Source: Spirochaetae bacterium HGW-Spirochaetae-3 (GTDB lineage: Bacteria > Spirochaetota > Spirochaetia > Treponematales > UBA12059). From it: a DNA stretch of 64,000 bases. Position numbers and translations under genes: made by a program. How positions within the stretch are numbered: the first letter of the stretch is position 1; each line of letters begins with the position of its first letter. The notes below the pieces were generated by a model that saw nothing but the letters and a program-made list of their open reading frames with translations, made no database searches and had not been told where the DNA came from. The DNA is taken from NCBI GenBank assembly GCA_002839315.1, contig PGXV01000004.1, forward strand, positions 98,787 through 162,786. Direction: 5' to 3'. This document shows, piece by piece, positions 5,533 to 32,970 of this stretch.

Positions 5533-6132
5533 ATGAAACGCTTCGTCGCGATCTGCTTATTCCTTATCGCCTCCTCCAACGCGTTGCCGGGTTACCCCGT
5601 CTATTACAAGGAACAGTTCTACAAGCTGTACCATACGCATTACATCCAGTATCCCGACGATACGATAGAGAACATCTACTGGCTCGAGCAGGCCAGGAAG
5701 GCCGATTTCTGCAACCCGCTGTACGCGCTCGCCAAGATCGAGGACGAGCGTCACTGGGAAAAGTACCGATACCTCTTCAACATGCACATCGACCTCAAGA
5801 TGATAGAGCAGCACCTGTACCTGGGAGCCAAGTTCGACAAGCGGGTCGCGTACTTCTATAACGCTCCGTGGAAGCGGGAGAACCTCGAGAGCCTCAAGAC
5901 GGCCGAGACGGCCTACCGCGCCGCCCTGACGTATTGGTCGAGCGCCAAGGAATGGGCCAAGAAAGCCGAGGGCATACGCTTCATGTACCTGCCCGAGGTC
6001 CAGTTCTGGGAGGGCGAGGCGTTCCGGATAACCGAGGGCGCTCTCGACTACGAGCGTATCATAGGGCGCGAGCTCGAGAGGCTGGCCAAGGTACGCTCCG
6101 ATTTCGAGGCGATGGACGAGGCCGGATATTGA
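5533..6132 (+). CDS. Secreted hypothetical protein (Tyr/Trp/Lys/Glu-rich, helical)
   Basis: 199 aa with a signal peptide MKRFVAICLFLIASSNA. The coding-like composition differs from the overlapping Arg-rich frames. No family recognised. Confidence 0.6.
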   Translation: MKRFVAICLFLIASSNALPGYPVYYKEQFYKLYHTHYIQYPDDTIENIYWLEQARKADFCNPLYALAKIEDERHWEKYRYLFNMHIDLKMIEQHLYLGAKFDKRVAYFYNAPWKRENLESLKTAETAYRAALTYWSSAKEWAKKAEGIRFMYLPEVQFWEGEAFRITEGALDYERIIGRELERLAKVRSDFEAMDEAGY

Positions 6133-16688: not shown

Positions 16689-18092
16689 ATGTCGCTTAAC
16701 TGGCGGGAGATAGACCTGGTGCTGAGCGAGCTCGATCTCGTGGGCGCCCAGATACAGAAAATCGTCCAGCCTTCCTACGACACCCTCGTACTGTCGTGCT
16801 ACAAGCCTGGCGCCGCGATAGAATTGCTGTTCTGCGTCGCTCACGGCGCGTGCCGCCTGCACGCTACGCGCATGCCCGTGCCCAAGGCCGAGAAGCCGCA
16901 GCGTTTCATGGAGCTGCTACGCTCCCAGGTCCGCGGCGCGCGCATAGAATCGATAGAGCAGATAGGCACCGAGCGCATCGTGCGCATGAGGATAGGCCGC
17001 GATGACGGCGAGCGCTTACTGTACGCGCGGCTGTGGTCGGGAGCGGCCAATCTCCTGCTATGCACGCCCGACGGGAAGATACTGGACGCGTTGGCCCGCA
17101 AGCCGAGCAAGGGCGAACTATCGGGCGGCCGATACGCGCCCGAGGCCGGGGCCGCCCCGTCGCGGGAGTTCGTCGTACGAGAGCTTCCCGGCGATGGAAC
17201 GTTCAACGAACGTATAGACTCTTTTTATGCCGAGCACGGTTCGGAGCTATCGCGGGCCGCTCTCCTGGAACGCGCCCGCAAGTATTTCTCGCAGCGCAGG
17301 GCCCAGCTCGACGCCCGCGCGGACGCCCTTACGAAGGCGGCGGCCGACTACGCGGAGGCCGATCGCTATCGCGAGCTGGGCGATATCCTGATGGCCAACC
17401 AGGCCGTTCAGCCGACGGGAGCGACCGTCGCGGCGGACGATTTCTATCAGGGCGGCGAGGCCGAGATACGCGTCGACCCGGGGAAGAGTATCCTCGACAA
17501 TGCCCGCGCCTATTACGAGAAGTCCAAGAAGGCCCGATCCGGAGCCGTCGAGACGGCCGCTGAGCTCGAGGAGCTACGCAAGGCCGTCGAATCGCTGGAA
17601 AGCGAGCGGGAGCGGATGGAGGCCACGGAGAATCCGTACGCCATCCGCGCCTACCTGGCCAAGCATCGCTCGGCGCCGTCGCAGGCGCCCAAGCGCTTTC
17701 CGGGCCTGTCCCTCGAGCGAAACGGCTGGCAGATACTTATAGGACGCTCGGCCGCCGAGAACGACGCGTTGCTGAGGAGGCACGTCCGAGGCAACGACCT
17801 GTGGTTCCACGCGCGCGATTACTCGGGCTCGTACGTGTTCGTCAAATCGAGGCCGGGCAAGAGCGTACCGCTCGAGATCCTGCTCGATGCCGGTTCCCTG
17901 GCCCTGTACTACTCAAAGGGCCGGTCCGCGGGCGCCGGCGACCTATACTACACCCATGCAAAATACCTCCGGCGAGCCAAGGACGGCCCCAGGGGCCTCG
18001 TCCTTCCGACCCAGGAGAAGAACCTACGCGTCAAGCTCGAAGACGCCCGCATGCGCGATCTCAGGCGCCTCATCGGCAAGGATGACGATTAG
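16689..18092 (+). CDS. NFACT-family protein (RqcH/FbpA-like; NFACT-N + coiled coil + NFACT-R/DUF814)
   Basis: 467 aa. N-terminus MSLNWREIDLVLSELD..IQKIVQP and a C-terminal DUF814-like segment LLRRHVRGNDLWFHARDYSGSYVFVKS. The position aligned by eye with the RqcH DR motif reads ER (GTERIVRM). Shorter than the typical ~570-aa RqcH. Confidence 0.7.
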   Translation: MSLNWREIDLVLSELDLVGAQIQKIVQPSYDTLVLSCYKPGAAIELLFCVAHGACRLHATRMPVPKAEKPQRFMELLRSQVRGARIESIEQIGTERIVRMRIGRDDGERLLYARLWSGAANLLLCTPDGKILDALARKPSKGELSGGRYAPEAGAAPSREFVVRELPGDGTFNERIDSFYAEHGSELSRAALLERARKYFSQRRAQLDARADALTKAAADYAEADRYRELGDILMANQAVQPTGATVAADDFYQGGEAEIRVDPGKSILDNARAYYEKSKKARSGAVETAAELEELRKAVESLESERERMEATENPYAIRAYLAKHRSAPSQAPKRFPGLSLERNGWQILIGRSAAENDALLRRHVRGNDLWFHARDYSGSYVFVKSRPGKSVPLEILLDAGSLALYYSKGRSAGAGDLYYTHAKYLRRAKDGPRGLVLPTQEKNLRVKLEDARMRDLRRLIGKDDD

Positions 18093-18107
18093 TCCCGCGC
18101 GGGACTA
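18090..18107. terminator. Perfect 18-bp palindrome spanning both convergent stop codons (candidate bidirectional terminator)
   Basis: TAGTCCCGCGCGGGACTA. The TAG stop of the NFACT gene and the complement of the clpC TAG stop are the two ends of the palindrome. Confidence 0.45.
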
Positions 18108-20627
18108 GCCCTTCGAGGCGCCTACCGGTTGCTGCGAGCCCCTCGTCTGCCTGACGACCTTGATGAAGAGCAGGCCATCCTTTTCCTTTACCCTGACCGT
18201 CGTCCCGGGAGAGCACTTGCCCTCTACTATCGACGCGGCGAGCGGGTCCTCTATCAGCTTCGTAATGAGACGCCGCATCGGCCTCGCGCCGTACGATTCG
18301 TCGTAGCCGTCCTCGACGAGCCTGTCGATAGCCTTCTTATCCAGTTCCAGGGCTATGCCGCGCTCGGCCAGCCGACGCCTGAGCTGCGACAGCTCCAGTT
18401 CAAGCACGGTCCTGACCTGCACCTGGTCCAGGGGATGGAAGACCACGACCTGATCGACGCGGTTTATGAACTCGGGATTGAAAAGACGCTTCAGCTCGGC
18501 GAGCGCGGCCGACTTGACGGCATCGTAGTCGAAACGCCTCGCCTCGGCGCCGAAGCCCAGCCTGGAACCGCGTATCAGGTCGCGAGTGCCCGCGTTGCTC
18601 GTCATGATGACGACGCAATTTCGGAACGAGACGGAATGGCCGAGGTTGTCGCGCAGCTCGCCTTCCTCCAGGAGCTGGAGGAGCAGGTTGAATACGTCGG
18701 GATGCGCCTTCTCGATCTCGTCGAACAGCACGACGCTATAGGGCTTCCGCCTGACGCGCTCGGTCAGCATGCCGCCCTCGTTATAGCCTACGTATCCGGG
18801 AGGCGCGCCGACGAGCCTGGCGGCGTTGTGCTTCTCCATGAAATCGGACATGTCTATGCGTATCAGCGCCTCGTCGCTGCCGAACAGGCTCTCGGCCAGG
18901 GTCTTGGCGAGCAGGGTCTTGCCGACGCCCGTGGGTCCGAGGAAGATGAAGGACCCGAGAGGCCGACGAGGATCGGATATACCCGCGCGCGATCGCCTGA
19001 CCGCGGAGGCGAGCGCCTTCACGGCGAAATCCTGCCCCACGACGCGCCGGTGCAGCTCATCCTCGAGGCTCGACAGGCGTTCCGACTCGCCCTCCGCTAT
19101 CCGTTGGACCGGGATTCCGGTCATCTCCGACACGACCGAGCGGACGTCTTCGACGCTTATGGTGACGCCGTCTCCGGCAACGCCAAGGTTCTTCGCCTTG
19201 AGCGACTCCAACTCGGCCTTGAGGCCACGTACCCTGTCGCGAACCTCGGCGGCGCGCTCGTAGTTCTGCGTCGACACGAGAGCGAGCTTTTCCTCGGTGA
19301 GGCGGCGTATCTCGGCCTCGATACCGTTCAGGCCCGGCCCGCGCGACGGACTCTCTACCTTCTTGCAGGCGCCCGCCTCGTCGAGCACGTCTATGGCCTT
19401 GTCCGGAAGGAAACGGTCGCTGACGTATCGGTCGGCGAGCCTGACCGATGCCTCTACGGCGTCCTGGGCGTACCGGACGCCGTGGTAGCGTTCGTACCGT
19501 TCCTTTATGCCGTTCAGGATATCTATCGATTGCTCTATCGTCGGCTCCTCGACGAGAACGGTCTGGAACCGGCGTTCGAGCGCCGCGTCTTTCTCGAAAT
19601 ATTTACGGTACTCGTCGAGGGTCGTGGCCCCGATGCACTGAAGCTCCCCGCGGGACAGCGCCGGCTTCAGCATGTTCGACGCGTCTATCGTACCCTCGGC
19701 GCTGCCCGCGCCTATGATGGTATGGAGCTCGTCGATGAAAAGGATGACGTTGCCCGTCGCTGCTATCTCCTTCATGATGCGCTTGAGGCGTTCCTCGAAT
19801 TCGCCGCGGTACTTGGTCCCGGCGACTATCGACGCCATGTCCAGGACGAGCAGGCGCTTACCGAGCAGACCTTCGGGGACATCGCCCTTCGCCATCCTGA
19901 GCGCAAGGCCCTCGACTATCGCGGTCTTGCCGACGCCCGGATCGCCTATCAGCACGGGATTGTTCTTGCTACGGCGCGACAGGATGCGCACGACGCGGCG
20001 GGTTTCCACCGTTCTCCCTATTACCGGGTCGATCCTGTCTTCGCGAGCCCACGCGGTCAGGTCGCGCGAGTGCTCGTCGAGGAGCGGCGTGGACCCTCCG
20101 GGTATCTTTCTCTGCGCGGCGGCGGAAGCGGCTACGCGCGGCGACGGCGTAACGGGGATATCCTCTTTTTCATGGGCCTCGTCGGTACCGCTCGCGGACA
20201 GCAGCTTGAGCGCGACGCGGAGCTGTTCGTAGAAGACTCCGTACCGCGATAGGTACTGCTCGAAGACCGATCCGCCCTCCCGCGCCGCTGCTATCACGAG
20301 GTGCTCCGTGCCGATATACTCGCCGTCCATTATCCTGGCTTCCTCGGCCGCGGTCTCCAGCATCGACTTGAGCCGCCGCGACAGAGGGGCGTCGCCGAGC
20401 AAGAATCCGCCCTTTCGCCCCGATGCGGCGCGCTCAAGGTCGAGCGCCAGCTCGCGCATGTCCATCTTCAGCGTGGACAACAAGCGATACCCCGTACCCT
20501 CTGCCTCGCCTATGAGCGACAGCAGCACGTGCTCGGGCGCCAGCTCCCCCGCGTGGAAACGTCGGGCCTCTTCCTGCGCCGACACCGTAAGCAGGCGCTG
20601 GGCCCGTTTCGTCAATCCTTTAAACAT
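18105..20627 (-). CDS. clpC: ATP-dependent Clp protease ATP-binding subunit ClpC
   Basis: 840 aa. Two Clp_N repeats, two AAA+ modules ([15 protein letters not shown]; [15 protein letters not shown]), a UVR-like linker ([21 protein letters not shown]) and an LGF tripeptide loop for ClpP docking. Confidence 0.93.
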
Positions 20628-21729
20628 CCATATACCCCTGGCTGAACCTCAGGCCGACGGCGGCCCGCCTCAGGGCCCTCGCTCGCATCGCCGCCTCCGG
20701 CTCGTCTGTCGTTGATTCCATGCGCGTATCCGCCGATCGCTTCGGCGCGGCTTCGCCTTCCCTGACCCTGGCGACGGAAGGCCGTATCCGTAGCGACGGC
20801 CATAGATCCGTTACCGTTTCCAGTCTCATGCCTTCGAGCGCTCCGCACGCCAGGCCGAGCCGCAGGCCGGAGCAGATATCGGCAGCCTCGTCACGCGAGA
20901 CGAGCCTGGCGCCTATCGCCCGTCCGGCGGCCCGCCCTATCACGTCGAGGATATCCCAGGAGCTACCCGAAAGGAGCTGATTCCTGGCGCGACGCTCGTA
21001 ATCGGCTATAGCCCGGGCCGCTCCTTCTAGGCGCTCGAGCGCCACCAGCTCCGGATCGCGATACACGGGAGGAAGCGAAAGCTCGAAAAGCGATCCTTCC
21101 GAGGCGCCCATGCCCGAGTACGCGCCGGAGACCACGAATCCGGCTTCCATGGCGCGCTTGAACGCTATCTCGGCGAGCCCGGAAACGACCAGCGACGGAG
21201 CGTGGATCGATACGCGAGCGGAAAGGCCGCTACCGCAGAACGCTATCTCCGACATGGCATAGCCGATGCCCGGATCGAAGGCCCAGACGCTCGAGCCCAA
21301 CGCGACGGAAATCGAGTCGTCGGCCTCGGACACGTCGGCCCAGGCGGCCCGCAGATCCAACCCGGGTCGCGATGCCCGAAAAGACAGATGGTTGACGTCG
21401 TTGACGGCGAGCCAAAGAGCGGAATCGGGACTGAGCGCGGCGTAGTTCTCCTCGTCGAGGAGGTAGGGACGGGAATAGAGCTCCCGTTCGGCGAGGTTCG
21501 ACCTCGACCACGGATCGAGGTCGCCTATCCTCGCGACCTCGAATCGGCGACTACGCGCGGCCGCGGACAACCCGGCGCCCAATTCGGCGATCGCTTCGCC
21601 GTCCAACGCATGCGGGAATCGATGGCCCTCCAGATTCCTGTCGACGGAGACGCGGGATCTGACTATCACGTCGAATTCTGGATATTCGCCCAGAGCGATA
21701 GGCCGCGCGGCCGGTCCGGTAAACGTCAC
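20620..21729 (-). CDS. mcsB: McsB-like protein (ATP:guanido phosphotransferase fold; catalytic motifs apparently divergent)
   Basis: 369 aa. The N-terminal RSRVSVDRNLEGHRFP matches the McsB SSRIRLARN..FP signature. Positioned between mcsA-like and clpC with overlapping stop/start codons. See findings for the motif erosion. Confidence 0.7.
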   Translation of the reverse strand: MTFTGPAARPIALGEYPEFDVIVRSRVSVDRNLEGHRFPHALDGEAIAELGAGLSAAARSRRFEVARIGDLDPWSRSNLAERELYSRPYLLDEENYAALSPDSALWLAVNDVNHLSFRASRPGLDLRAAWADVSEADDSISVALGSSVWAFDPGIGYAMSEIAFCGSGLSARVSIHAPSLVVSGLAEIAFKRAMEAGFVVSGAYSGMGASEGSLFELSLPPVYRDPELVALERLEGAARAIADYERRARNQLLSGSSWDILDVIGRAAGRAIGARLVSRDEAADICSGLRLGLACGALEGMRLETVTDLWPSLRIRPSVARVREGEAAPKRSADTRMESTTDEPEAAMRARALRRAAVGLRFSQGYMDV

Positions 21730-22196
21730 TGCGGGTGCCTCTCGGTCGCCGCCCTCAGCCTGTCGCGTATAGCGGCCGCGGTCTCGAAATCCTCAGATCG
21801 TATAGCCCGTTCCAGCGAGCTCGAAAGCGACGCGATGGAGTCTCCGACGGAGTCGGCGTCGCGGAGCCTGCGGGGAACCTTGCCGTCGTACGGGTGATGA
21901 CCGCCGGAACGATTGAGCGCGGATACTATTTCCCGCCGATACGCCTTGACGCAATCGGTACAGCCCAGGCGACCGCTCGATCTCAGGTTATCCGCCGTCC
22001 AGCCGCACGCGGGGCAAGGCCCCGACGACGCCGCCTCGTCGATCAGCAGGGAATCGAGGCGCGCGCCGAGACCTTCTCCGGACGAGGCGTAGCCGCGGGC
22101 CACCGCGCAGGCCCTGCACATGCGCAACTCGCCTCCCGAACCGTCGGGTTTTATGAAGAAGACGCTATCGTTCGATCCGCAGACATCACATCGCAT
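21726..22196 (-). CDS. mcsA: McsA-like activator (four CxxC zinc motifs + UVR motif)
   Basis: 156 aa. CDVC...CRAC and CPAC...CTDC pairs, then SEDFETAAAIRDRL (UvrB/C-type motif). ATGA overlap with mcsB. Confidence 0.75.
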   Translation of the reverse strand: MRCDVCGSNDSVFFIKPDGSGGELRMCRACAVARGYASSGEGLGARLDSLLIDEAASSGPCPACGWTADNLRSSGRLGCTDCVKAYRREIVSALNRSGGHHPYDGKVPRRLRDADSVGDSIASLSSSLERAIRSEDFETAAAIRDRLRAATERHPQ

Positions 22197-22333: not shown

Positions 22334-23317
22334 ATGAAAAGATTCTTGGCCGTCGCGCTCGCGGCGTTTTCCCTTGGACTCCCCCTCTTCGCCATAGGAG
22401 GGAAGGAAGCCCCCGCGGCTCCTATAACCGTGCGCGCTGGCGCCCTCAAGGGCCCCTCGGGCATCGGCATGATATACCTGTTCGAGACACCTCCGACCCT
22501 ACCCGGGTCGTCGACGCTGGCCATGGAGGCCATTCCGTCCGCCGACGCCATGGCGGCCAGGCTCTTGTCGGGAGAGATCGACGCCGCCGTGCTTCCGGTG
22601 AACATGGCCGCGAAGCTCTATAACGCCGGTTTGCCCTACAGGATGGTCGCCGTCGTCGGGAACGGTATGGTCAAGGTCGTCACGACGGATCCCGCGGTCA
22701 CGGCGATAGGCGACCTCAAGGGCCGCCGCGTCTACGTCGCCGGACAGGGCGCCACGCCGGAATTCCTCATGAGGACCGTCCTTCCCGGCGCGGGGATAGA
22801 CCCGGGCAAGGATATAGACATGGTCTTCAACATGCCCTACCCCGAGATCGCCGCCAGCGTCGTTGCCGGGAGGGTCGATATAGCCGTCCTGCCGGAGCCG
22901 TTCGCGACGCTCGCCCTCAAGGGCAATCCCGCGGCCCGGGTCGCGTTCCCTCTCACGGAGCTGTGGACCAAGGCCACCGGCCAGGGCGACTATCCCATGA
23001 CCGTATTCGTCGTCCGCTCCGGTCTCGTGGACGAGCGGCCGGAGCTCGTAGCCGCCCTGCTCAAGGCCTACGAGGCGTCAATACGCGACGTCCTGGCCGA
23101 TCCCGTAGCGGCCGGCGCCCTCGTCGAGAAGCACGACATGGGGCTCAAGGCGCCGATAGCGGCCGCGGCGATCCCCGCGTGCGCCTTCACGTTCATACCG
23201 GCGCTCGAGGCTCGGCCCGCGGTCGAAGCGTTGCTGTCGGTATTCCTCGCCTCGTCGCCGGCGTCTATCGGTTCAAGGCTTCCGGATGCGGCCTGGTACG
23301 CCAACGTCCCGCGCTAG
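22334..23317 (+). CDS. ABC transporter substrate-binding protein (NMT1/THI5/SsuA-like)
   Basis: 327 aa. Signal peptide MKRFLAVALAAFSLGLPLFA, a type-2 periplasmic binding fold pattern, and an AAAGGAAG ribosome-binding site upstream. Confidence 0.75.
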   Translation: MKRFLAVALAAFSLGLPLFAIGGKEAPAAPITVRAGALKGPSGIGMIYLFETPPTLPGSSTLAMEAIPSADAMAARLLSGEIDAAVLPVNMAAKLYNAGLPYRMVAVVGNGMVKVVTTDPAVTAIGDLKGRRVYVAGQGATPEFLMRTVLPGAGIDPGKDIDMVFNMPYPEIAASVVAGRVDIAVLPEPFATLALKGNPAARVAFPLTELWTKATGQGDYPMTVFVVRSGLVDERPELVAALLKAYEASIRDVLADPVAAGALVEKHDMGLKAPIAAAAIPACAFTFIPALEARPAVEALLSVFLASSPASIGSRLPDAAWYANVPR

Positions 23318-24047
23318 GGCCGACGGGCTGTTCGCCCTCGCCGTCATCGTCGCGGCGTGGAAGATAGCGGCGCTCGGAGTAGGCGTCGAAATAATACTAC
23401 CGTCTCCCGAAAGGGTACTCTCGACGCTCGCCCGCATAGCCTCTTCCGAGCGATTCTTGTCGTCGCTCGGCGCGACGGCCCTCAGAGGGCTCGCCGCCTT
23501 CGGCGTATCGATGGTTCTCGGCGTAGCCGTCGGCTTCGCCGCGGGCGTATCGAGGCGCTTCGACGCCCTGCTCGGACCCGGCCTGACGATAGTGCGGGCG
23601 ACGCCGGTGCTCGCCGTCATCCTCATAGCGATGATATGGTTCCCCGCCGGCGTCGTGCCCGTATTCTCCGCCGTCGTCATGGCCTTTCCGGTCGTGGCCG
23701 CCGACGTCGCCGCGGGTATCCGCTCGGCCGATCCGCGTCTCATCGACATGGCGAGGTCTTTCGGCGTATCGAGGCGCGACGCGTCGCTAACGATTCGCTT
23801 GCCGTCCGCCATGCCTTACGTCGTTTCCGCGGCCAGGAACGCCGTCGGGCTTTCCTGGAAGGTCGTCGTGGCCGGAGAGGTCCTGAGCCAACCGACGTTC
23901 GCCCTGGGCACGGGCATGCAGAACGCGCGCGTCATGCTCGAGACCGCCGAGGTATTCGCCTGGGCGGCTACCGGGGTGCTGCTATGCGCGGTCAGCGACG
24001 CCCTCTTCGACATACTCGCGAGGAGGTTGGCATGGCCTACGAAATAG
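23286..24047 (+). CDS. ABC transporter permease (BPD_transp_1, SsuC/TauC-like)
   Basis: 253 aa with multiple TM helices and an EAA-like loop (DMARSFGVSRRDASLTIRLPSAMPY). Confidence 0.8.
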   Translation: MRPGTPTSRARADGLFALAVIVAAWKIAALGVGVEIILPSPERVLSTLARIASSERFLSSLGATALRGLAAFGVSMVLGVAVGFAAGVSRRFDALLGPGLTIVRATPVLAVILIAMIWFPAGVVPVFSAVVMAFPVVAADVAAGIRSADPRLIDMARSFGVSRRDASLTIRLPSAMPYVVSAARNAVGLSWKVVVAGEVLSQPTFALGTGMQNARVMLETAEVFAWAATGVLLCAVSDALFDILARRLAWPTK

Positions 24048-24742
24048 CGAACCTGCGGAAGGCGTACGGAGAGAGCCAAGTCCTCGGCGGCATCGACCTA
24101 TCGTTCCAGGAAGGCAGTATCACCGTCGTGCTCGGCCCGTCCGGATGCGGCAAGACAAGCCTTCTCAACATCCTGGCCGGCCTCGACGAAGACTATTCCG
24201 GCTCCGTTACCGGTTTCGGGAGCGGCAAGGTCAGCTACGTGTTTCAGGAGGACAGGCTCCTGCCGTGGATGAGCGCGGCCGACAACGTCGCGTTCGTGCT
24301 CAGGGACCGAATGGAGCGCGCGCGCGCGCGGACGGTAGCCGAGGAGGCGCTCGCGTCGGTCGGATTATCGGAGTCGACGTATATGAAGCCGGGATTACTG
24401 TCCGGAGGCATGAGGCGACGCGTAGCGCTCGCTAGGGCGTTCGCCTATCCGTCTGACGCGATACTCCTGGACGAGCCGTTCTCGTCGCTCGACCTCAAGA
24501 CGCGCATCGCGGTCATGGATCTCTTCATGGACCTCAGGACCCGGGACGGCCGTAGCGCCGTAGTCGTTACGCACGACGTACGCGAGGCCATCTACCTCGG
24601 CGACAGGATAGCGACCCTGTCGGACAAGCCGGCCAGGATACGCGACGTCTTCGACCTGAGCCTGGATCGCGGGCAGCGCGCCTTCGCGAGCGAGGACGCC
24701 GCCGGGTTCGAGGCCAGGCTCTACGCGTCGATCCTGGCCTAG
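24032..24742 (+). CDS. ABC transporter ATP-binding protein
   Basis: Last 236 aa of track ORF 23357..24742. Walker A GPSGCGKTS, signature LSGGMRRRVALAR and Walker B ILLDEPFS. AGGAGG lies upstream of the ATG at 24032. Confidence 0.9.
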   Translation: MAYEIANLRKAYGESQVLGGIDLSFQEGSITVVLGPSGCGKTSLLNILAGLDEDYSGSVTGFGSGKVSYVFQEDRLLPWMSAADNVAFVLRDRMERARARTVAEEALASVGLSESTYMKPGLLSGGMRRRVALARAFAYPSDAILLDEPFSSLDLKTRIAVMDLFMDLRTRDGRSAVVVTHDVREAIYLGDRIATLSDKPARIRDVFDLSLDRGQRAFASEDAAGFEARLYASILA

Positions 24743-24754
24743 ACCGGCTTCGGC

Positions 24755-26683
24755 TTACGGCCCGAGCAGGGCGGCGATCGCCTCGAGAAGATCCTCTTCG
24801 CTGAACGGCTTGCGCAGCCGCGCCTCTCGCGGCATGCGATACGCGGCCTGGCCGTCGTCCGCCGAGGCGGAGTCTCCGTCGATCGTTTCCGCGTTCAGCA
24901 GGAATAGCGCCGGAAGCATGGGTTCCCTGGCGCGGAATCGTTCGACCAGCTCGAAACCGCTCATCAACGGCATCTTGTCGTTGACGACGACTACGTCCGG
25001 AGCGGCGGCCATCTTCTCGACTACCAGCAGCGCCTCCCCGGGATGGTTCGCCGTAACGACCCTGTACCCGGCCCTGTCCAGCAATGCTTCGGCGATGGTA
25101 AGCACGGAATTGTCGTTCTCTACGAGCAGCACGGTCTTGTCCTGACAACGGACGGGCTTCCCGTACGGCTTCGCTATCGAGGCCTCGGCGTCGCCCGCGG
25201 ATTCCAGGAGCCGTTCCGACGCGCGGGGGAAGAGGAGGCGCATGGTCGTCCCCTTGCCGAGCGCCGAGTTCATCGTGATGCGGCCGCCCGCCTGGCGTAC
25301 GATACCGACTACCGTGGCCAGGCCCAGGCCGGTACCGCGGTCGGCGGGCTTGGTCGTGAAGAACGGCTGGAATATCTTGGCTTGGGTCGCTTTCGGGATT
25401 CCCGTACCCTCGTCCTGAATCTCGATGTACGCCCAATCGCCCGCGGGGACGGGTTCGATGGCTCCGGGCGTCTCAGCCTGGGTATGCTGAACTCCGGTCG
25501 CCAAGACGATACGGCCTCCGCTCGGCATGGCGTCCCGAGCATTGGCGACGAGGTTGACGATTGCCTGCTCGAGGCGCCCCTTGTCGACTACCACGGTGTC
25601 GTTCCCGTCGAAGGCGCGCACGATTATAGAGAAGCCGTCGCCTACGATGCGCTTGAGAATACGCTCGTTTTCTCGCGCCAGATTCGAGAGCCTGAACGCG
25701 GTCGCCTTGCTCTCGTCGCGGCGCGAGAACATGAGGAGCTGCCTGGACAACGCCGCCGCCCGTTTCGCCGCCTGATCGATCCCGTCGAGCTCCTCGAGCC
25801 CCCTGCCCTCCACCTCGAAATCCGAGCGCAGGAGGCGAGCGTAGCCCATGACCGCGGTAAGCACGTTGTTGAAATCGTGCGCGACGCCTCCGGCGAAGCG
25901 GCCGAGCGCGGACAGGCGCTGCGCATGGATCAGCTGATCCATTAGCGTCTTTCGTTCCGTCACGTCGACGGCTTGGTACTGGTACGCGCGCCCCCCGTCC
26001 GGCAGCACGATAGGCGCGGCGCTCAGGAGCGCCCAGGCTTCCTTGCCGTCCGTTCTCCTTACCTCGATCTCGTTGGGGCCGTAGCTCTCTCCCGACGCCA
26101 TTGCCCGCATGACCTCGCCATATACGACCTCGTCATCGATGAATTCCCGGACGCTCTCGGCCTCGGGCGCGAGCGTCCGGTATGCCTTGTTCGTCTCGAG
26201 GATCCTGCCGCCCAATTCTACAAGCATGGATGCCGCGAGTCCGTTCTCGAATAGACCGCGGTATCGCTCCTCGCTACTCCTGAGTCGCTGCTCCATGGAC
26301 GCCCTGTAGAGCCCGATGGATATCGCCGTCTTAAGCTCACGCTCGTCGTACGGCTTGAGGATATAGGCGTAGGGATGCGTCAGCTTCGCGCGCTCGATGG
26401 TCGGGCCGTCGGCGTATGCGGTAAGCAGGATGACCGGTATGCTCCAGCGCTGCAGAAGCTCGGCCGAGGCCTCGATCCCGTCCATCTCGCCCTGCAGGTG
26501 TATATCCATCAACACGAGATCGGGCTTGATCTCCTCTGCATCGCGCAGAAGATCCTCCGCGGCCGCATAGATCGCCGGGACCTCGTATCCGTTACGTTGC
26601 AGGAACGCTCGTATATCGAGCGCAACGATACGTTCGTCCTCGCAGATTGCTATTCGTGACGGAGTGACCGTTTGTTCGTTCAT
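24755..26683 (-). CDS. Hybrid sensor histidine kinase (REC-PAS-HisKA-HATPase-REC)
   Basis: 642 aa. N-terminal receiver (ICEDERIV..LVLMDIHL..ILKP), a PAS region, H-box GGVAHDFNNVL, G-boxes DEGTGI/GTGLGLA, and a C-terminal receiver (VLLVENDN..VVVNDKMPLMSG). Confidence 0.9.
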   Translation of the reverse strand: MNEQTVTPSRIAICEDERIVALDIRAFLQRNGYEVPAIYAAAEDLLRDAEEIKPDLVLMDIHLQGEMDGIEASAELLQRWSIPVILLTAYADGPTIERAKLTHPYAYILKPYDERELKTAISIGLYRASMEQRLRSSEERYRGLFENGLAASMLVELGGRILETNKAYRTLAPEAESVREFIDDEVVYGEVMRAMASGESYGPNEIEVRRTDGKEAWALLSAAPIVLPDGGRAYQYQAVDVTERKTLMDQLIHAQRLSALGRFAGGVAHDFNNVLTAVMGYARLLRSDFEVEGRGLEELDGIDQAAKRAAALSRQLLMFSRRDESKATAFRLSNLARENERILKRIVGDGFSIIVRAFDGNDTVVVDKGRLEQAIVNLVANARDAMPSGGRIVLATGVQHTQAETPGAIEPVPAGDWAYIEIQDEGTGIPKATQAKIFQPFFTTKPADRGTGLGLATVVGIVRQAGGRITMNSALGKGTTMRLLFPRASERLLESAGDAEASIAKPYGKPVRCQDKTVLLVENDNSVLTIAEALLDRAGYRVVTANHPGEALLVVEKMAAAPDVVVVNDKMPLMSGFELVERFRAREPMLPALFLLNAETIDGDSASADDGQAAYRMPREARLRKPFSEEDLLEAIAALLGP

Positions 26684-26744
26684 CCTTGGGTTACGATTCG
26701 CCCCGCGGCCGATATCGGCTCCGTTCCGCGCGGACGCTACCGCG

Positions 26745-27113
26745 TTACTCCGCGACCTTCTTAACGACGGCGAGCAACTTATCCGCGCTGAACGGCTTGA
26801 CGATCCAGCCCGTCGCTCCGGCTTCCTTGCCTTCGTTCATCTTGCCCCCCTGCGACTCAGTCGTGAGCACGAGAATAGGAACGAATTTGAATTTCGGGTT
26901 CTCGCGGGCCTTGCGTATGAAGGTTATTCCGTCCATATTCGGCATATTCACGTCGGTGATTATGCAATCGAACCGGCTACCCGAGTCGAGCTTCTGGAGG
27001 CCCTCGACTCCATCTCCGGCTTCCACGGTCGTATAGCCTTCTTGTTGGAGGATATACGAGATGCTCTGCCTGATGGCTGCTGAATCGTCGATGATGAGTA
27101 TGCTCTTGGCCAT
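26745..27113 (-). CDS. cheY: Chemotaxis response regulator CheY
   Basis: 122 aa from MAKSILIIDDSAAIR..ITDVNMPNMDG..IVKPF. AGGAGG sits 5 nt upstream of the internal ATG (M7 of the track ORF). Confidence 0.88.
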   Translation of the reverse strand: MAKSILIIDDSAAIRQSISYILQQEGYTTVEAGDGVEGLQKLDSGSRFDCIITDVNMPNMDGITFIRKARENPKFKFVPILVLTTESQGGKMNEGKEAGATGWIVKPFSADKLLAVVKKVAE

Positions 27114-27192
27114 GGTTCCTCCTAATGGCATTCGGCGCGAAGGCTACCGGATCCCGTTTTAAAAATCATATAGCGAACGCGATGAGATAGTA

Positions 27193-28263
27193 TCATCGCG
27201 CCGATTTAAGCACTTCCGCGGCGATCCGGTCGAGAGGCAGGACGATATCGACGCCGCCTAGCTTTATCGCCTCGTTCGGCATCCCGAAAACGACGCACGA
27301 CTCCTCGTTCTGGGCTATGGTCCTGGCGCGGGCGTCGTGCAGCTCCTTCATCCCGCGCGAACCGTCGTCGCCCATCCCCGTCATGATGACTCCGACGGCG
27401 TTGCCCCCGGCATAGCGCGCGGCCGACCGGAACAGCACGTCTACGCTCGGTCTATGCCTGCAGACGAGCGGACCATCCTTCACCTCTACATAATACCTCG
27501 CTCCGGAGCGCTTGAGAAGCGTATGTTTATTCCCGGGGGCGATAAGCACCCGGCCGCGAATGACCGTATCGTTGTCGCTGGCTTCCTTGACGCCTACCCT
27601 GCACAATCCGTCGAGACGCCTGGCGAAGGCCGCCGTGAAATGCTCCGGCATATGCTGCACGATGACGATTCCCGGCGTATCCTCCGGCAGGGCCTCGAGG
27701 AACTCGCGTAGCGCCTCAGTACCGCCCGTCGACGCGCCTACGACCACGACCTTCTCCGTGGTATCGATAATGGTGTTTATTCCCGGCGCGGCGAGCATCA
27801 CGTCGGCGGTCAGCTTGGGAGAGACGTCGTGTATCGGAGGCAAGGGGACCCGGCGGCGATTCCTGGAGGCGTACGCAGCCTTGACCACGTCGCATATCTC
27901 CACCCGCGATTCCTCGAGGAACTGCTTCGTGCCGAGCTTCGGCTTCTGGATTATATCGACGGCGCCGTACTCCATCGCCTTGATGGCGTTGTCGGAGCCT
28001 CCTTCCGTCTTGCTCGAGCATATGACCACGGGTACGCGGCTCGTCTCCATGATCTTGCGAAGGAAGGACAGGCCGTCCATGCGAGGCATCTCGACGTCGG
28101 AGACTATTACGTCTGGCTTATCCGTCTCCATCTTCTTGAGGGCGAATATAGGATCGGACGCAACGGCAATAACCTCTATCGCGGGGTCGGAATCCAGGAG
28201 ATCCTTGAGCGTCTGACGTACGACCGCTGAATCGTCGACGACCATAACCTTGATGCGTTCCAT
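27193..28263 (-). CDS. cheB: Chemotaxis protein-glutamate methylesterase CheB (REC + CheB_methylest)
   Basis: Starts [12 protein letters not shown] (M17 of track ORF). Catalytic domain with GASTGG and GMGDDG motifs. Confidence 0.92.
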
Positions 28264-28282
28264 CTGATTCCTCTCGGATGAA

Positions 28283-29131
28283 CTATAGACGTTCGTAGAC
28301 GGTAGGCGCAAGGCCGCGTAACGGTAACGACATTCCCGTCAGCGTCTCCGAGTGCCCGAGTATCAGGTTCCCGCCTGGTTTAAGGTATCTGCACATAGTA
28401 CCGAGGATGCGCTCCTGGGTCGTCCTATCGAAATAGATAATGACGTTTCGGCAGAAAATGACGTCGAATTTACCGTCGAACGGGAATCGTTCGTCCATGA
28501 AGTTGAGCCTGAGGAAATCGACCTTGTCGCGCAGCTCCTTCTTGATTCGAACCTCCGGGTTAGCCGGATCGCGACTACGGAGCAGGTATTTCTTCTTGTA
28601 CGAAGGAGGCACCGGTACCACCCTGTCGGAATGGTAGATGGCGCTTATCGCGGTATCGAGTGCGCGCGTCGAGATGTCCGAAGCGACTATCCTATAGTCG
28701 AAGCCAGGATTGGAAAGGCGGAATTCCTCTAGAACCATCGCGAGCGTATATGGTTCCTCGCCGGTAGCGCATCCTGCCGACCATACGGATAATGTGCCGC
28801 GGCTTCCCGTACGCTCGAGCGCTTCGGGCAAGAGGCGCGAGGTCAATAGATCGAAATGATCCGGCTCTCTGAAGAAATCCGTCTTGTTGGTCGTTACGAC
28901 GTCTATCATATGGATGAGCTCGGCGTCGTCGCCTGAGAAGACCCTGTCGATATACTCGTCGTAGCTCTGCATCTTGAGTACGCGCAGTCTCTTTTGAAGG
29001 CGGCTCTCCAGCATGACCCGCTTGGTATCGGGCATCTTGATACCCAATTCCTTCTCTATGAAGGCCGAGAGCCTCTTGAATTGCTTGTCGGAAATACCGG
29101 AGGCGGCGTTCTGTACATAAGTATCGCTCAA
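28283..29131 (-). CDS. cheR: Chemotaxis protein methyltransferase CheR
   Basis: 282 aa. CheR_N followed by a SAM-binding domain ([28 protein letters not shown]). TTG start with GGAGGA upstream. Confidence 0.92.
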
Positions 29132-29234
29132 AAACTATCCTCCAAACGTCCGACGGATAAACAGTATGAGTATCAGTGTATTGGCCCGCGGCCTCCGGCG
29201 CAAGTAATAATGCGGAAGCTTGGCTCGAGGGGTA

Positions 29235-31157
29235 TCAGTCTAGCACCTGGGCATAGCTAACGCCGGAAATAGAGAAAACGGCGTAGAGGGCTCCGTTCCT
29301 CGACCCTCGGCCCTCGGGCGGCATGACCGCCCCGAAATCGAAGGGCTTCTTCCCGATCCAGACGACCAATCCGCCGGAATCGGGGACGAGGGGCACCGTC
29401 TTGCCGTCTTCCATGACGCCTTCTATACGCCCGTTCCGATAGACGGCCTCTATCACGCGGCCGCGAGGGCTCGTATAGCGGTAAAGGACCGTGCCGTCCG
29501 CGCGAGTCTCGAGCGACATATCGGCAGAACCGTCCCCATCGTAGTCCCAGGACTGAGATCGCGGAACCCCGAGGCCTTCCCGATATTCAAAAAAGCCGTC
29601 TCCGTCGAGGTCGGTCTCGTAATACGCTGGGGCGGGGATTCCGTCTTCGCCGCGGCGCCAGATCCTGCGCGATTCGTAACGGCCGTCCCCGTCGGCGTCG
29701 ACCGTCTCTTCGATAGGCATGCCGCCTCGATAGACCGCGTAACCGATACGACGATACGCGTCCTGCCACCAGGTCCGCGCGGGCTGTCCCTCGAATAGCT
29801 CTACTGTCTCTATACCCGGACCTATTCGCCGGGAGGCGTAGGCGAGGCTGACCGCGCGAGTCTCGGTCGGTAACGGGAGATCGCCGCGAAATACGAAATA
29901 CGGCCCGCCAGGCGCGCCCGTCATGGATTCCATGGACACGAGCGGGACGGGCATCACGGCCGGCCCCAGGGAATACGTCCTCGTCCCGGAATCGTCGGCA
30001 TACTCCAGCGTATCGGCATAGGGCCAGGAGCCGTAGCGTATCGTCACGGTAACGGAGCCGGATACGGCCTTCATGGTCCGCGGTACGCCGGATAAAAACG
30101 ACGATTCGATCTCGGGCTCGCCGTCCTGGTTGACGTCAAGCGCCCAGGCCGCGGGCTGGCCCGAAGCGTACAGGGTCGTAGACTCGGGGATGCCGTCCCT
30201 ATCCTCGTCCCGGGCGATCTCTCCGGAGAAGGAGGAAAACGCCTTGACGAAAAACGCCCTGGATTCACCGCTCGACAAGAGCGCGTAGAGCGTCCGGATC
30301 GACTCTTCGGTCGCCGCGTACCGCCCGGACAACATCTCCCCTACCGCGCGGTCCTCGTCTACGAGGCCGTATTCGAGCGCGAGCACGGTAGCGTCTGCGC
30401 TCGATCGCCCGATGGCCCGGTACTCCCGTACGAGAAGCCGCGACTCGTTCACGGAAGATGCGTACGGAGCCAGGGCTATCAGTGCGTCGGGGTCGATTTC
30501 CTTTATCGCGGCGAGCGCTGCGAATCCGGCGGACACGAGCTCGGCGTCTCCGGCGGACGAAAAGGGACGCTTCGTCGACCGTAGCCACGCTATCAAGGGC
30601 CGTGGATCGACGGGATAGCGGCGGAGCGAGGCGAGCGCGGCGGAACGGGAACCGGCGTCGTCTCCGAGGGCTAGCCTGGCGATCGACTCCACGTACAGAG
30701 CCTCGGCGCTCGGGGGCATGTCGGAGACGAAGCGGAGCGCGTCTTCGGGTCGCCGCGTACGGGCGAGTATGGCCGCGTACAGGAGGCGCGCGTCCTCGGC
30801 CTTATAGAGCCGGAACCCGCCACCCGCCAAGGCTCGCTCCAGCGAGCCGGCGGCCGACGACAGGCTCTCGCCCCCGGAGAGGCCGAGCAATGCACGCAGA
30901 TAGTTAGCGTCGGGATCGGACGGAACGAAGGACAGGGCCTCGTCCAGAAGAGTAACGGCCGCTCCCGCGTAACCGGCCGCGAGCGCGTCTCGGGCGCTGT
31001 TCACTAGGGACGCGCACAGCGCCGCATCGCGCGAGGTCGTATCGGCGAACGAAGGGACGGCAGACGCCAGCGCGAGCGCCAGCGCCGATATGAGCAGTCC
31101 CTTACGCCTCGCTCGTAGCCGGATCGGCGAATCCGAACATAGCCTTGATGTCGTCAT
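29235..31157 (-). CDS. Secreted TPR + Asp-rich (DxDGDG) repeat protein, hypothetical
   Basis: 640 aa. Signal peptide LLISALALALASAVPSFA and an N-terminal TPR-like helical region. The C-terminal half carries repeated calcium-binding-like loops (NQDGEPE, DEDRDGIPE, DADGDGRYE, DLDGDGFFE, DYDGDGSAD). AAGGAG lies ~10 nt upstream of the ATG, inside the ftsH 3' end. Confidence 0.65.
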   Translation of the reverse strand: MTTSRLCSDSPIRLRARRKGLLISALALALASAVPSFADTTSRDAALCASLVNSARDALAAGYAGAAVTLLDEALSFVPSDPDANYLRALLGLSGGESLSSAAGSLERALAGGGFRLYKAEDARLLYAAILARTRRPEDALRFVSDMPPSAEALYVESIARLALGDDAGSRSAALASLRRYPVDPRPLIAWLRSTKRPFSSAGDAELVSAGFAALAAIKEIDPDALIALAPYASSVNESRLLVREYRAIGRSSADATVLALEYGLVDEDRAVGEMLSGRYAATEESIRTLYALLSSGESRAFFVKAFSSFSGEIARDEDRDGIPESTTLYASGQPAAWALDVNQDGEPEIESSFLSGVPRTMKAVSGSVTVTIRYGSWPYADTLEYADDSGTRTYSLGPAVMPVPLVSMESMTGAPGGPYFVFRGDLPLPTETRAVSLAYASRRIGPGIETVELFEGQPARTWWQDAYRRIGYAVYRGGMPIEETVDADGDGRYESRRIWRRGEDGIPAPAYYETDLDGDGFFEYREGLGVPRSQSWDYDGDGSADMSLETRADGTVLYRYTSPRGRVIEAVYRNGRIEGVMEDGKTVPLVPDSGGLVVWIGKKPFDFGAVMPPEGRGSRNGALYAVFSISGVSYAQVLD

Positions 31158-32970
31158 CGAGCAGAGTCTCCTTACGGATGAGTTCTTCCGCCAGGCTGAT
31201 CAGCTGGTCGCGATGCTCGGTCAGTACCTCGAACGCCTTTTTACGGGCTTCGTCGAGAATATTGAATACGGCGCGATCGATCCTCTTCGCCGTATCCTCG
31301 GAATAGTCCTTATGCTGGGCTATTTCCTTCCCTATGAATATCGGCTCTTCTTCCTGGCCGTACGAGACGGGCCCGAGTTCCTCGGACATCCCCCATTCGC
31401 ATGCCATCTTGTGGGCCAGGTCGGTCGCTTGCCTGATATCCTGCGTGGTACCGGTCGTCGTCTCTCCGTATACTATAGTCTCGGCCGCGAAACCGCCGTA
31501 CGATATGACAATCCGGTCGCGAATCCAACCGCGGCTCCGGGAATACGCGTCCTTGGCCGGCAACGACATGGCGAGACCGAGCGCGCGACCGCGCGGGACG
31601 ATGGTCACCTTATGAAGGGGATCGGCGTTGGGCAGGTAGTAGTGGAGCAACGCGTGGCCCGCCTCGTGATAGGCGGTGGCCTTCTTCTCCTCCTCGGAGA
31701 TGATGAGCGAGCTGCGGGCGATGCCCATCATTATCTTGTCGCGGGCTTCCTCGAAGTCCTGCATCTCGACCTCTGTATGCTCACGGCGCACGGCGAACAG
31801 CGTGGCCTCGTTAACCATGTTGGCCAGGTCGGCGCCGCTCATGCCGGGCGTGGCGCGGGCGAGCCTGGAGGCGTCGATATCGCTGGAGATGGGCACCTTG
31901 GCCATGTGTAACTTGAGGATATCCTCGCGTTCCTTGATATCGGGCATGGCGACGATGACCTGCCTGTCGAAGCGGCCGGGCCGCAGGAGCGCGGGGTCGA
32001 GCACGTCGGGCCTGTTCGTGGCCGCGAGTATTATGACGCCGTCCTTGGTGTCGAAGCCGTCCATCTCGACGAGCATCTGGTTGAGCGTCTGTTCTCGTTC
32101 GTCGTGGCCGCCGCCATAGCCGGCGCCTCGGGTGCGCCCGACCGCGTCCAGTTCGTCGATGAACAATATGCACGGCGCGCTCTTGCGCCCCTGGTCGAAG
32201 AGGTCACGGACGCGGCTGGCGCCTACGCCGACGAACATCTCGACGAAGTCCGATCCGGACATATGGAAGAACGGTACGTCGGCCTCCCCCGCTACGGCCT
32301 TGGCCAGCAGGGTCTTGCCCGTTCCGGGCATGCCGACGAGCAGTACGCCCTTGGGGATACGGGCGCCCATTTTAACGAATTTCTGTGGGTTCTTGAGGTA
32401 ATCGACGACTTCGAGAAGCTCGTACTTGGCTTCCTTCTGGCCGGCTACGTCGGCGAACGTAATCTTCTTGTCGCTGGTCAGATATTTCTTGGCCCGACTC
32501 TTGCCGAAGCTGAAGGCCTTGTTGTTGCCTTGCATCTGGCGTAATACCATCCAGACCAGGAAGAACCCGAATATCCACGGGAACAGTTCACCGAGTACCC
32601 GCAGGGGGCTCAGTTCCGCGCTGGCGCCTTCGAGCTTGACGTCCCGCGCCTTCAGCTCATCGAGGAGACCGTTATCGACGTAGGGTATCAGCGTGCTGAA
32701 TTCCTGGGTAGCGCCGGCCTTGCCTTTGAGCGTTCCCTGTATCAGCCGCTGGTCGACGATGCGGACCGACTCGACGTTGCCTTCTTCCAGATGAGCGACG
32801 AACGTGGAATACGGGATGGGAGCGGCGACTGACGATCCGTCGAACAGGAAGAGTCCCACCGACGCGACGAGGAGGGCGACGAAAACGATCAGCGATATTT
32901 TGGCGTTGCGGGGCGGCCCCGCCTCGGGTTTCTTCGGTATCTTTGGTGAGTTATTATCGTCAAATTGCAT
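31102..32970 (-). CDS. ftsH: ATP-dependent zinc metalloprotease FtsH
   Basis: 622 aa. Two N-terminal TM segments, AAA module [17 protein letters not shown], and the zinc site HEAGHAL. Confidence 0.97.

Follow-up and report, generated by a model that had tools for sequence, protein, structure and literature searches.

Can a gene that holds the place of mcsB, between mcsA and clpC, have kept that place after its product lost the chemistry of a kinase? McsB, the "writer" that marks bacterial proteins for degradation with phosphoarginine, is to our knowledge the only known dedicated protein arginine kinase. The question is raised by a 64-kb stretch of DNA from Spirochaetae bacterium HGW-Spirochaetae-3 (contig PGXV01000004.1, positions 98,787 to 162,786; hereafter the window, to whose positions all gene coordinates refer), in which a minus-strand gene at 20620-21729 encodes an McsB-like protein of 369 amino acids (aa). 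An original prediction, made from the letters of the window, had described this protein as an McsB homolog with apparently eroded phosphagen-kinase signatures, possibly an adaptor-only pseudokinase or an enzyme of altered chemistry. The comparisons below indicate that the gene is probably a positional McsB ortholog turned pseudoenzyme in an uncultured Spirochaetota lineage, that its product is very probably not an arginine kinase and, on balance, that this pseudo-arginine-kinase has been kept as a phosphorylation-independent partner of McsA and ClpC.

An McsB homolog between mcsA and clpC

The McsB-like protein matches PF00217, the ATP:guanido phosphotransferase catalytic domain (E = 5e-14; 52.5 bits, cutoff 22.4). 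The five equivalog models of NCBIfam for "protein arginine kinase" (NF053707 / NF002191-4; EC 2.7.14.1) all match it, at 57-124 bits where 381-679 would be required; the two highest scores, 124.2 and 110.2 bits, compare with cutoffs of 385 and 500. Judged by these models, the protein is a relative of McsB that fails as an McsB equivalog. Alignment of a family profile with a profile of 23 canonical McsBs in hhalign gave a probability of 100% and E = 1e-53 over 336 aligned columns. An AlphaFold2 model built from the family alignment, using family sequences only, has a predicted local distance difference test (pLDDT) score of 88.7 and a predicted template modelling (pTM) score of 0.86, and is disordered only at residues 206-209, the equivalent of the lid loop (pLDDT <50), and in the linker at 320-340. 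The top PDB matches of this model in Foldseek are all McsB structures, with full-length template modelling (TM) scores of 0.77-0.83 (~0.8 to 6tv6 and 6fh1), and it superposes on the McsA-bound kinase domain 8wtc_A with a TM score of 0.91 and a root-mean-square deviation of 1.9 Å; arginine and creatine kinases rank after the McsBs, at TM ~0.5. In the predicted structure, the phosphotransferase scaffold and the C-terminal dimerisation domain are both intact. The homology to McsB that had been claimed is therefore borne out by sequence, by profile-profile alignment, which also reproduced the residue equivalences first drawn by eye, and by the McsB fold of the model (TM 0.77-0.91).

The gene is the middle one of three abutting minus-strand open reading frames (ORFs), which are arranged as follows:

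21726..22196, minus strand: McsA-like gene, 156 aa, with two CxxC...CxxC zinc-ribbon motifs, a Y-D-G-K-V-P loop and a UVR helix
21726..21729, minus strand: GTGA, 4 nucleotides (nt) shared by the stop of mcsA and the start of the mcsB-like gene, consistent with translational coupling
20620..21729, minus strand: McsB-like, putative pseudo-arginine-kinase gene, 369 aa, GTG start (evidence from PF00217, NCBIfam, the AlphaFold2 model, hhalign and substitution rates)
20620..20627, minus strand: ATGTTTAA, an 8-nt overlap of the mcsB-like stop and the clpC start
18105..20627, minus strand: ClpC gene, 840 aa, with Clp_N, two AAA+ modules, a UVR M-domain and an LGF ClpP-binding loop at residue 690

Both overlaps, as they read in the DNA, are the usual signature of translational coupling, and the order mcsA, mcsB-like, clpC with overlapping junctions was found in every Spirochaetota locus examined, including each locus of the eroded family described below. 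The tight coupling to an intact McsA and ClpC that had been proposed holds in both respects, the junctions being overlapping and the motifs of both partners being present. Within the second overlap, ATGTTTAA codes for M-F-K of ClpC, with GGGG upstream as its likely ribosome-binding site. A conserved C-terminal "...DV" of the McsB-like family was considered as a docking or degron motif and rejected, since the last 8 nt of the gene are the clpC start and the overlap accounts for the conservation.

Replacement of catalytic and phosphoarginine-binding residues

Residues are numbered on B. subtilis McsB, in a sequence that agrees with PDB 8wtb/6tv6 at 100% identity from residue 1 to 363, and were matched to those of the window protein (the query) in four independent alignments, namely phmmer against three solved McsBs, MAFFT with 45 homologs, MAFFT with 57 database representatives, and the hhalign profiles. 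The roles of McsB and phosphoarginine residues are taken second-hand from the literature (PMC7235348, PMC8370763, PMC11046695, PMC12583610). All four alignments agree on the equivalences. In the N-terminal strand, R29, R31, R34 and N35 of B. subtilis McsB correspond to R26, S28, R31 and N32 of the query; in the NEEDHxR region, E120, E121, D122, H123 and R125 correspond to D111, V112, N113, H114 and S116; in the Cys loop and lid, C167, V171, R176, R207 and E212 correspond to E161, C165, S170, S201 and G206; and in the clamp and receptor, R190, R194, R337 and D338 correspond to G184, I188, E345 and A346. As motifs, NEEDHIR is paired with NDVNHLS, CPTNVGTGLRAS with EIAFCGSGLSAR, and RGIYGEGSE with SGAYSGMGA. 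The altered segments lie at the following positions:

21613..21660, minus strand: equivalent of the N-terminal phosphate-binding strand, RSRVSVDRNLEGHRFP, residues 24-39; R34/N35 kept, R31→S28, R29 equivalent variable in the family
21382..21402, minus strand: NEEDHxR equivalent NDVNHLS, residues 110-116; E121→V, D122→N, R125→S
21214..21249, minus strand: equivalent of the catalytic Cys loop, EIAFCGSGLSAR, residues 161-172; C167→E161, V171→C165, R176→S170
21142..21180, minus strand: family-specific near-invariant helix GLAEIAFKRAMEA, residues 184-196, which replaces the R190/R194 phosphoarginine-clamp helix
21097..21129, minus strand: lid-loop equivalent SGAYSGMGASE, residues 201-211; R207→S, E212→G, with 206-209 variable in the family
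20680..20697, minus strand: degenerate phosphoarginine receptor motif; R337-D-x-x-R341-A → E345-A-A-M-R349-A

The consequences of such changes can be read from B. subtilis McsB, in which each conserved arginine was swapped for lysine and R29K, R31K, R34K, R125K, R176K, R207K and R337K each killed kinase activity (Lilge et al., PMC7235348). Five of these seven individually essential arginines (R31, R125, R176, R207, and R337) are replaced in the query, and among the ATP-phosphate arginines R29, R31, R125, R176, and R207 it retains the R29 equivalent (R26) alone, the other four being Ser. C167 is the catalytic cysteine of McsB (PMC11046695), mcsB C167S is the standard kinase-dead allele (PMC7235348), and R309 and E314 of arginine kinase, the equivalents of McsB R207 and E212, bind ATP phosphates and guanidinium (PMC11492440). 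The NEEDHxR Glu and Arg, Cys167, and lid R207/E212 are invariant in 23/23 canonical McsBs, as are R31, R176, and R337, and all of them are replaced in the query. Because five of the seven essential arginines, the catalytic Cys and both catalytic Glu residues are replaced, the kinase chemistry appears to be lost, and neither ATP-phosphate binding nor guanidinium activation by this protein seems plausible.

The original prediction had inferred as much for the Glu, the Cys and several Arg residues; the peptides on which it relied sit exactly at the residues given for them, and the formal alignments show the catalytic Glu and Arg replaced at equivalent positions. Its view that the N-terminal motif is present was right in part, as R34/N35 and F41/P42 are kept, but the equivalent of the essential R31 is Ser28. 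E211, which it had included in the RG..GE equivalent and which was considered here as a shifted E212, was set aside, being aligned with V217 and Glu in only 2/46 family members. The losses also extend beyond those it had listed, to the R190/R194 clamp, the R337/D338 receptor motif and the SNQ motif after the lid, which reads L-P in the McsB-like protein. The pArg194 clamp at the R190/R194 site holds the B. subtilis McsB octamer together (PMC8370763), and R337-D-x-x-R341-A is the phosphoarginine (pArg) receptor motif (PMC7235348); to judge from the aligned residues, pArg194 clamping and phosphoarginine reading via R337/D338 should both be impossible in the McsB-like protein.

The same losses throughout a family under purifying selection

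A word-indexed search recovered 46 clusters of the family at 41-100% identity, all from metagenomes or metagenome-assembled genomes (MAGs); where a source is named, the name indicates Spirochaetes. The eroded clade is small, since an exhaustive search returned 2,267 relatives at E ≤ 0.001 and only 15 at E ≤ 1e-30; a species-representative collection holds the family in 17 or more genomes of uncultured Spirochaetota, which carry the labels Treponemataceae, Spirochaetales or Spirochaetes. R31, R125, R176, R207, and R337 are Arg in 0/46 clusters and D338 is also absent from 46/46, the C167 position is E or D in 43/46, and the R29 position is Arg in only 10/46. Recurrence of the same substitutions in 46 clusters spanning this range of identity means that the residue losses are due neither to chance nor to error. 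The ORF is intact in all 46 clusters, with no frameshifts or stops, and 47 columns are invariant. In a comparison of the window with a relative of 85% identity (dS 0.58, unsaturated), the ratio of nonsynonymous to synonymous substitution rates (dN/dS) is 0.144 for the McsB-like gene, 0.131 for McsA and 0.077 for ClpC. A pattern of residue loss conserved under purifying selection in spirochete orthologs is what a pseudokinase would be expected to show, and the substitutions are shared across all 46 clusters.

Canonical McsBs (76 representatives) and 46 family members were compared column by column. R29, E121, R176, R207, E212, G213, Q222, and S224 are ≥95% conserved in the 76 canonical proteins, and the commonest residue at each in the family falls below 60%; T228 is likewise highly conserved in canonical McsBs and variable in the family. 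A variable ATP/guanidinium site and lid, as seen in these columns, is the signature of relaxed constraint and not of a re-engineered site. The "altered chemistry" alternative is weakened by the same observation, the former ATP and guanidinium positions varying within the family and not having been re-fixed. Other positions are conserved but different in the family (R125→S, D122→N, Q127→R, T165→M, P168→A, N225→L, and Q226→P), and others again are newly invariant, namely the helix G184-A196 (GLAExAFKRAMEAG), R87-P88, W149, R233, Y244, R247, W258, R279-D280, and W310. The helix at 184-196 and these other new invariant residues are candidate new interaction surfaces. A further 31 positions are conserved and identical in canonical McsBs and the family, among them R34, N35, F41, H123, G162, G172, H182, and P184 of the fold core and E251, R255, D268, R272, E287, R296, G298, R341, and A342 of the C-terminal domain.

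Retention of features that couple McsB to McsA

The McsA-like protein matches Pfam UVR (E = 3e-7) and the NCBIfam McsA model (E = 3e-18, 66 bits, under the cutoff of 210), and aligns with residues 77-173 of B. subtilis McsA (8wtb_B; phmmer, E = 1e-14), a region made up of the second zinc ribbon, the L3 loop with the G-K-x-P lysine, and the coiled-coil/UVR part. Conservation across ~25 loci extends to all the Zn ligands of the McsA-like protein, to its UVR helix, and to the equivalents of R96 (GRLGC) and K127 (Y-[DE]-G-K-x-P). On the McsB side, R255, R272, and R341 are needed in B. subtilis for stimulation by McsA and not for basal activity (PMC7235348), and their equivalents are invariant in the eroded family. 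McsB contacts McsA through F41, D146/D147 (salt bridge to McsA K127), S166, and E233, and the crystal structure shows the McsB kinase domain bound by the Z2-L3-UVR part of McsA (PMC11046695); F41, the D146/D147 pair, S166, and E233 are conserved in the eroded family. In the most divergent locus (41% identity; L001/L002/L022, ~5720-6004), McsA is shortened to ~95 aa comprising the Z2 zinc ribbon, the L3 loop and UVR, lacks the first zinc ribbon and was missed entirely by one gene caller. Because the coupling residues are kept, the most divergent locus retains the McsB-binding part of McsA, and McsA-McsB fusions exist, the sequence evidence argues that selection maintains the association of McsA with the McsB-like protein. 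In another locus (L019, ~5680-6000), a run of N, translated as X, breaks the McsA-like gene, which is an assembly gap and not biology.

Other eroded McsBs and McsA-McsB fusions

Non-canonical McsBs extend beyond this clade. Among the 150 best of the 50%-identity representatives, a list biased toward the query, 79 are fully canonical and 43 lack all of E121, C167, and E212. Outside the query clade, many McsB-like representatives (P0058-P0063, P0070, P0073, P0075, P0088, and others) keep the ATP-phosphate arginines and lack E121, C167, and E212, which suggests that non-canonical McsBs, labelled arginine kinases by automatic annotation, have radiated broadly. Within Spirochaetota, the same operon slot is occupied by a near-canonical McsB (C167S, R207K, E212D), by Sediminispirochaeta forms that have lost E121 and C167 and kept the arginines, and by the fully eroded clade; Planctomycetota relatives have a canonical McsB without an adjacent ClpC. 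A rough neighbour-joining (NJ) tree without support values places the eroded clade as one lineage nested within a non-canonical branch, and the order of loss in that branch, as far as such a tree can indicate it, may have been R337 and C167, then E121 and E212, then the ATP arginines.

The relatives also include single-chain McsA-McsB fusions of 474-575 aa, with a UVR motif N-terminal to PF00217 (P0081, P0087, P0094, P0097, P0100, P0139, P0166, and P0168). Those examined likewise lack the catalytic residues, and one is named "protein-arginine kinase/activator McsA" by JGI. Catalytically eroded McsB homologs carry the source annotations "protein arginine kinase" (JGI), "ATP--guanido phosphotransferase" and "hypothetical protein". 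Position 171 is Cys in 44/46 family members (C165 in the window, codon 21235-21237), and Cys171 recurs in several other lineages that lost C167 and never in canonical McsBs; the loop cysteine has apparently been relocated by 4 residues, from 167 to 171.

The ClpC partner

The window ClpC has the LGF ClpP-binding loop, two Walker A motifs and a UVR motif in the M-domain. Its N-domain was considered as a discriminator for lost phosphoarginine reading and rejected, the E32, E106, and T7 equivalents being invariant. T31→P and R5→G occur in all Spirochaetota ClpCs, including those adjoining a near-canonical McsB, and since the same changes stand beside a near-canonical McsB the N-domain is uninformative. 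R5 of B. subtilis ClpC has been reported as an McsB phosphorylation site; the equivalent of B. subtilis R5 and T31 of phosphoarginine pocket 1 are thus replaced phylum-wide in Spirochaetota ClpC. The N-domains of Spirochaetota ClpCs start MFKGLT and carry APEH/LPEH, as against MF(E/G)RFT and GTEH in Firmicutes and actinobacterial ClpCs; residues 1-35 of the window ClpC are encoded at 20523-20627 (minus strand). A 707-aa ORF antisense to clpC (18129-20252, plus strand) is a spurious long ORF typical of DNA of 63-65% GC content and not a gene.

A probable pseudoenzyme, its proposed action on ClpC and the alternatives

Homology and fold shared with an active enzyme, absence of residues known from experiment to be essential, and purifying selection are all found here, as would be expected of a pseudoenzyme. 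With its partners retained, the McsB-like protein may have an adaptor or regulator role on ClpC. The protein would still assemble with the zinc-ribbon/UVR protein McsA, and the pair would act on the co-translated ClpC as a phosphorylation-independent adaptor or regulator, by activation or inhibition, with ClpC pairing with ClpP through its LGF loop. Direct contacts between proteins, and not a phosphoarginine tag, would then bring substrates in or keep ClpC under control; one contact, on our own speculation, might be between the McsA UVR helix and the UVR motif of the ClpC M-domain. The phenotype of mcsB C167S has already led to the suggestion that McsB can serve as an adaptor independently of its kinase activity (PMC7235348).

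Several points weigh against this reading. The ClpC-activating adaptor function in B. subtilis is reported, in the summary given in PMC7235348, to depend on active, phosphorylated McsB, for which reason a phosphorylation-free route to ClpC would be new. Equivalents of E32 and E106, which belong to the phosphoarginine pockets, persist in the N-domain of ClpC. R118, two residues past the lost R125 and on the same face of the strand, is R or H in 45/46 members, and R172 stands in the same relation to the lost R176, being basic in 22/46 and Arg in 12/46; together with query R26 and R31, such downstream basic residues may form a residual anion site. The conserved E161, C165, and S116 may likewise mean a new pocket and not an empty one.

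If these residues are taken at their strongest, the active site would have been rewired, and the protein would still be a protein arginine kinase or another ATP-dependent phosphotransferase in which R26, R31, R118, and R172 bind the phosphates and E161/D111 replace the glutamates. The conservation of R118, the acidic residue at the C167 position in 43/46 members, and the retention of the fold and of the McsA "activator" fit such an enzyme; however, single conservative R-to-K changes kill B. subtilis McsB and here five positions are Ser, Ala or Glu, R26 and R172 are poorly conserved (Arg in 10/46 and 12/46), the lid loop is variable and disordered in the model, and positions 121, 176, 207, and 212 vary in the family, so that no alternative constellation has been fixed. 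We consider a rewired kinase very unlikely. A repurposed pocket is unlikely to a lesser degree. The old guanidinium/ATP pocket could have become a sensor of a ligand (arginine, phosphoarginine or an arginine side chain) or the seat of non-kinase chemistry with C165, H114, and E161/D111, coupling a signal to ClpC, and its lining is indeed conserved but different (S116 in 43/46, E/D161 in 43/46, C165 in 44/46, R/H118 in 45/46, and N113 in 37/46), with Cys171 recurring in several independent C167-less lineages and never in canonical ones. These residues lie, however, in the lambda2 loop, which the crystal structure shows in contact with the Z2 domain of McsA (PMC11046695); McsA binding is thus the simpler explanation, and neighbouring pocket positions are variable. 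The more specific form of this idea, in which a pocket rebuilt around E161, C165, R118, S116, and H114 makes McsA and the pseudo-McsB a signal-gated controller of ClpC, with the move of Cys from 167 to 171 as its signature, is more doubtful again.

About as improbable as the repurposed pocket is a decoy that heterodimerises with, or competes against, a second canonical McsB encoded elsewhere and so modulates a phosphoarginine system. The strongly conserved C-terminal dimerisation core (the E251, R255, D268, R272, E287, R296, and G298 equivalents) and the phosphoarginine-pocket glutamates kept by ClpC would suit such a protein; yet the ClpC N-domain is of the same style in spirochetes with a near-canonical McsB and so carries no information, no second McsB-like gene lies within the 64-kb window, and the gene occupies the ancestral mcsA-mcsB-clpC slot that it shares with near-canonical and intermediate Spirochaetota McsBs, which marks it as the ortholog and not an extra copy. 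That the gene is a functionless, decaying remnant, retained solely by its place between two coupled genes, is scarcely credible. Its evolution is faster than that of ClpC (window against L003: 54% amino-acid identity for the McsB-like protein, 86% for ClpC), but its dN/dS of 0.14 equals that of McsA and excludes a decaying pseudogene, no frameshifts or stops occur in 46 clusters of such divergence, 47 positions are invariant, new family-specific surfaces are conserved, and the fold is confidently predicted. A pseudo-arginine-kinase retained as a phosphorylation-independent partner of McsA and ClpC is the reading that we favour.

Comparison with known systems

The McsB-like protein is like the McsBs of Bacillus subtilis, Geobacillus stearothermophilus, and Staphylococcus aureus (6tv6, 6fh1, 8wtb/8wtc, 8gqd) in its two-domain fold, its length and its mcsA-clpC slot, and shares with these solved structures R34/N35, H123, G172-x-G, the C-terminal core, and R255/R272/R341. 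It differs from them in its identity of 23-25%, its scores under the equivalog cutoffs, its new invariant surfaces (helix 184-196), and the absence of R31, R125, R176, R207, E121, E212, C167, R190/R194, and R337/D338. The nearest laboratory counterpart is B. subtilis McsB C167S, a kinase-dead mutant that partly supports MgsR degradation and carries a single engineered substitution in a canonical protein (PMC7235348); by comparison, the natural family has lost the whole catalytic and phosphoarginine apparatus and the protein has been kept over a long evolutionary time. The half-eroded Spirochaetota McsBs (Sediminispirochaeta, Spirochaetaceae MAGs) and the McsA-McsB fusions fall on the same non-canonical NJ branch, have lost C167 and R337 and often E121/E212, and share Cys171 and the partnership with McsA, adjacent or fused; unlike the window clade, they mostly keep the ATP-phosphate arginines.

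In the absence of catalytic residues, in purifying selection and in retention with the enzyme's partners, the family resembles pseudokinases and pseudoenzymes generally. The described bacterial pseudokinases have the Hanks-type Ser/Thr kinase fold (PMC12599244), and a 2025 review of bacterial pseudokinases covers Hanks-type folds alone and cites McsB only as a kinase. No pseudoenzyme with the phosphagen-kinase/McsB fold came up in a full-text literature search, nor any account of catalytically eroded McsB homologs, including McsA-McsB fusions without catalytic residues. A functional analogy may be proposed with MecA-type ClpC adaptors, as non-enzymatic activators or targeters of ClpC, to which the McsB-like protein has no sequence or fold relationship and with which it would share a putative binding of ClpC.

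A kinase-independent adaptor role of McsA/McsB on Clp ATPases has so far been argued from point mutants only. The eroded lineage would be a natural separation-of-function allele, in which the writer, the reader and the autophosphorylation sites are gone and McsA, the McsB scaffold and ClpC remain coupled under selection. Should the pair indeed bind or regulate ClpC without phosphorylation, the adaptor function would stand alone and could even be what evolution retains once the tag is abandoned. Since annotation pipelines label eroded McsBs "protein arginine kinase," the distribution of phosphoarginine signalling across bacteria has probably been overstated.

Genomic neighbourhood

A scan of the operon for promoters and terminators gave no promoter match on the mcsA strand and no convincing terminator, and no CtsR- or CIRCE-like element was seen at the operon by eye. 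No second McsB, YwlE-type low-molecular-weight protein tyrosine phosphatase (LMW-PTP) motif, CtsR or HrcA was found in the 64-kb window or in the gene calls within ±10 kb. Convergent to clpC lies a gene for an NFACT_N/NFACT-R protein, an RqcH-like ribosome quality-control factor (16689-18092, plus strand), followed by secA; this NFACT-secA arrangement is kept in all eroded-clade loci (L001-L023); beside the clpC of the Sediminispirochaeta and near-canonical loci it was not detected. FtsH is encoded ~10 kb away on the other side of the operon, so that the neighbourhood is rich in proteostasis genes. Divergent from the mcsA promoter region, 22334-24750 (plus strand) encodes an NMT1/phosphonate-binding-type ATP-binding cassette (ABC) transporter, with substrate-binding protein, permease and ATPase, and ~24755-31700 on the minus strand encodes a hybrid histidine kinase with two receiver domains, a single receiver, cheB, cheR, and ftsH. 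The transporter and the chemotaxis/ftsH block are syntenic across the eroded clade.

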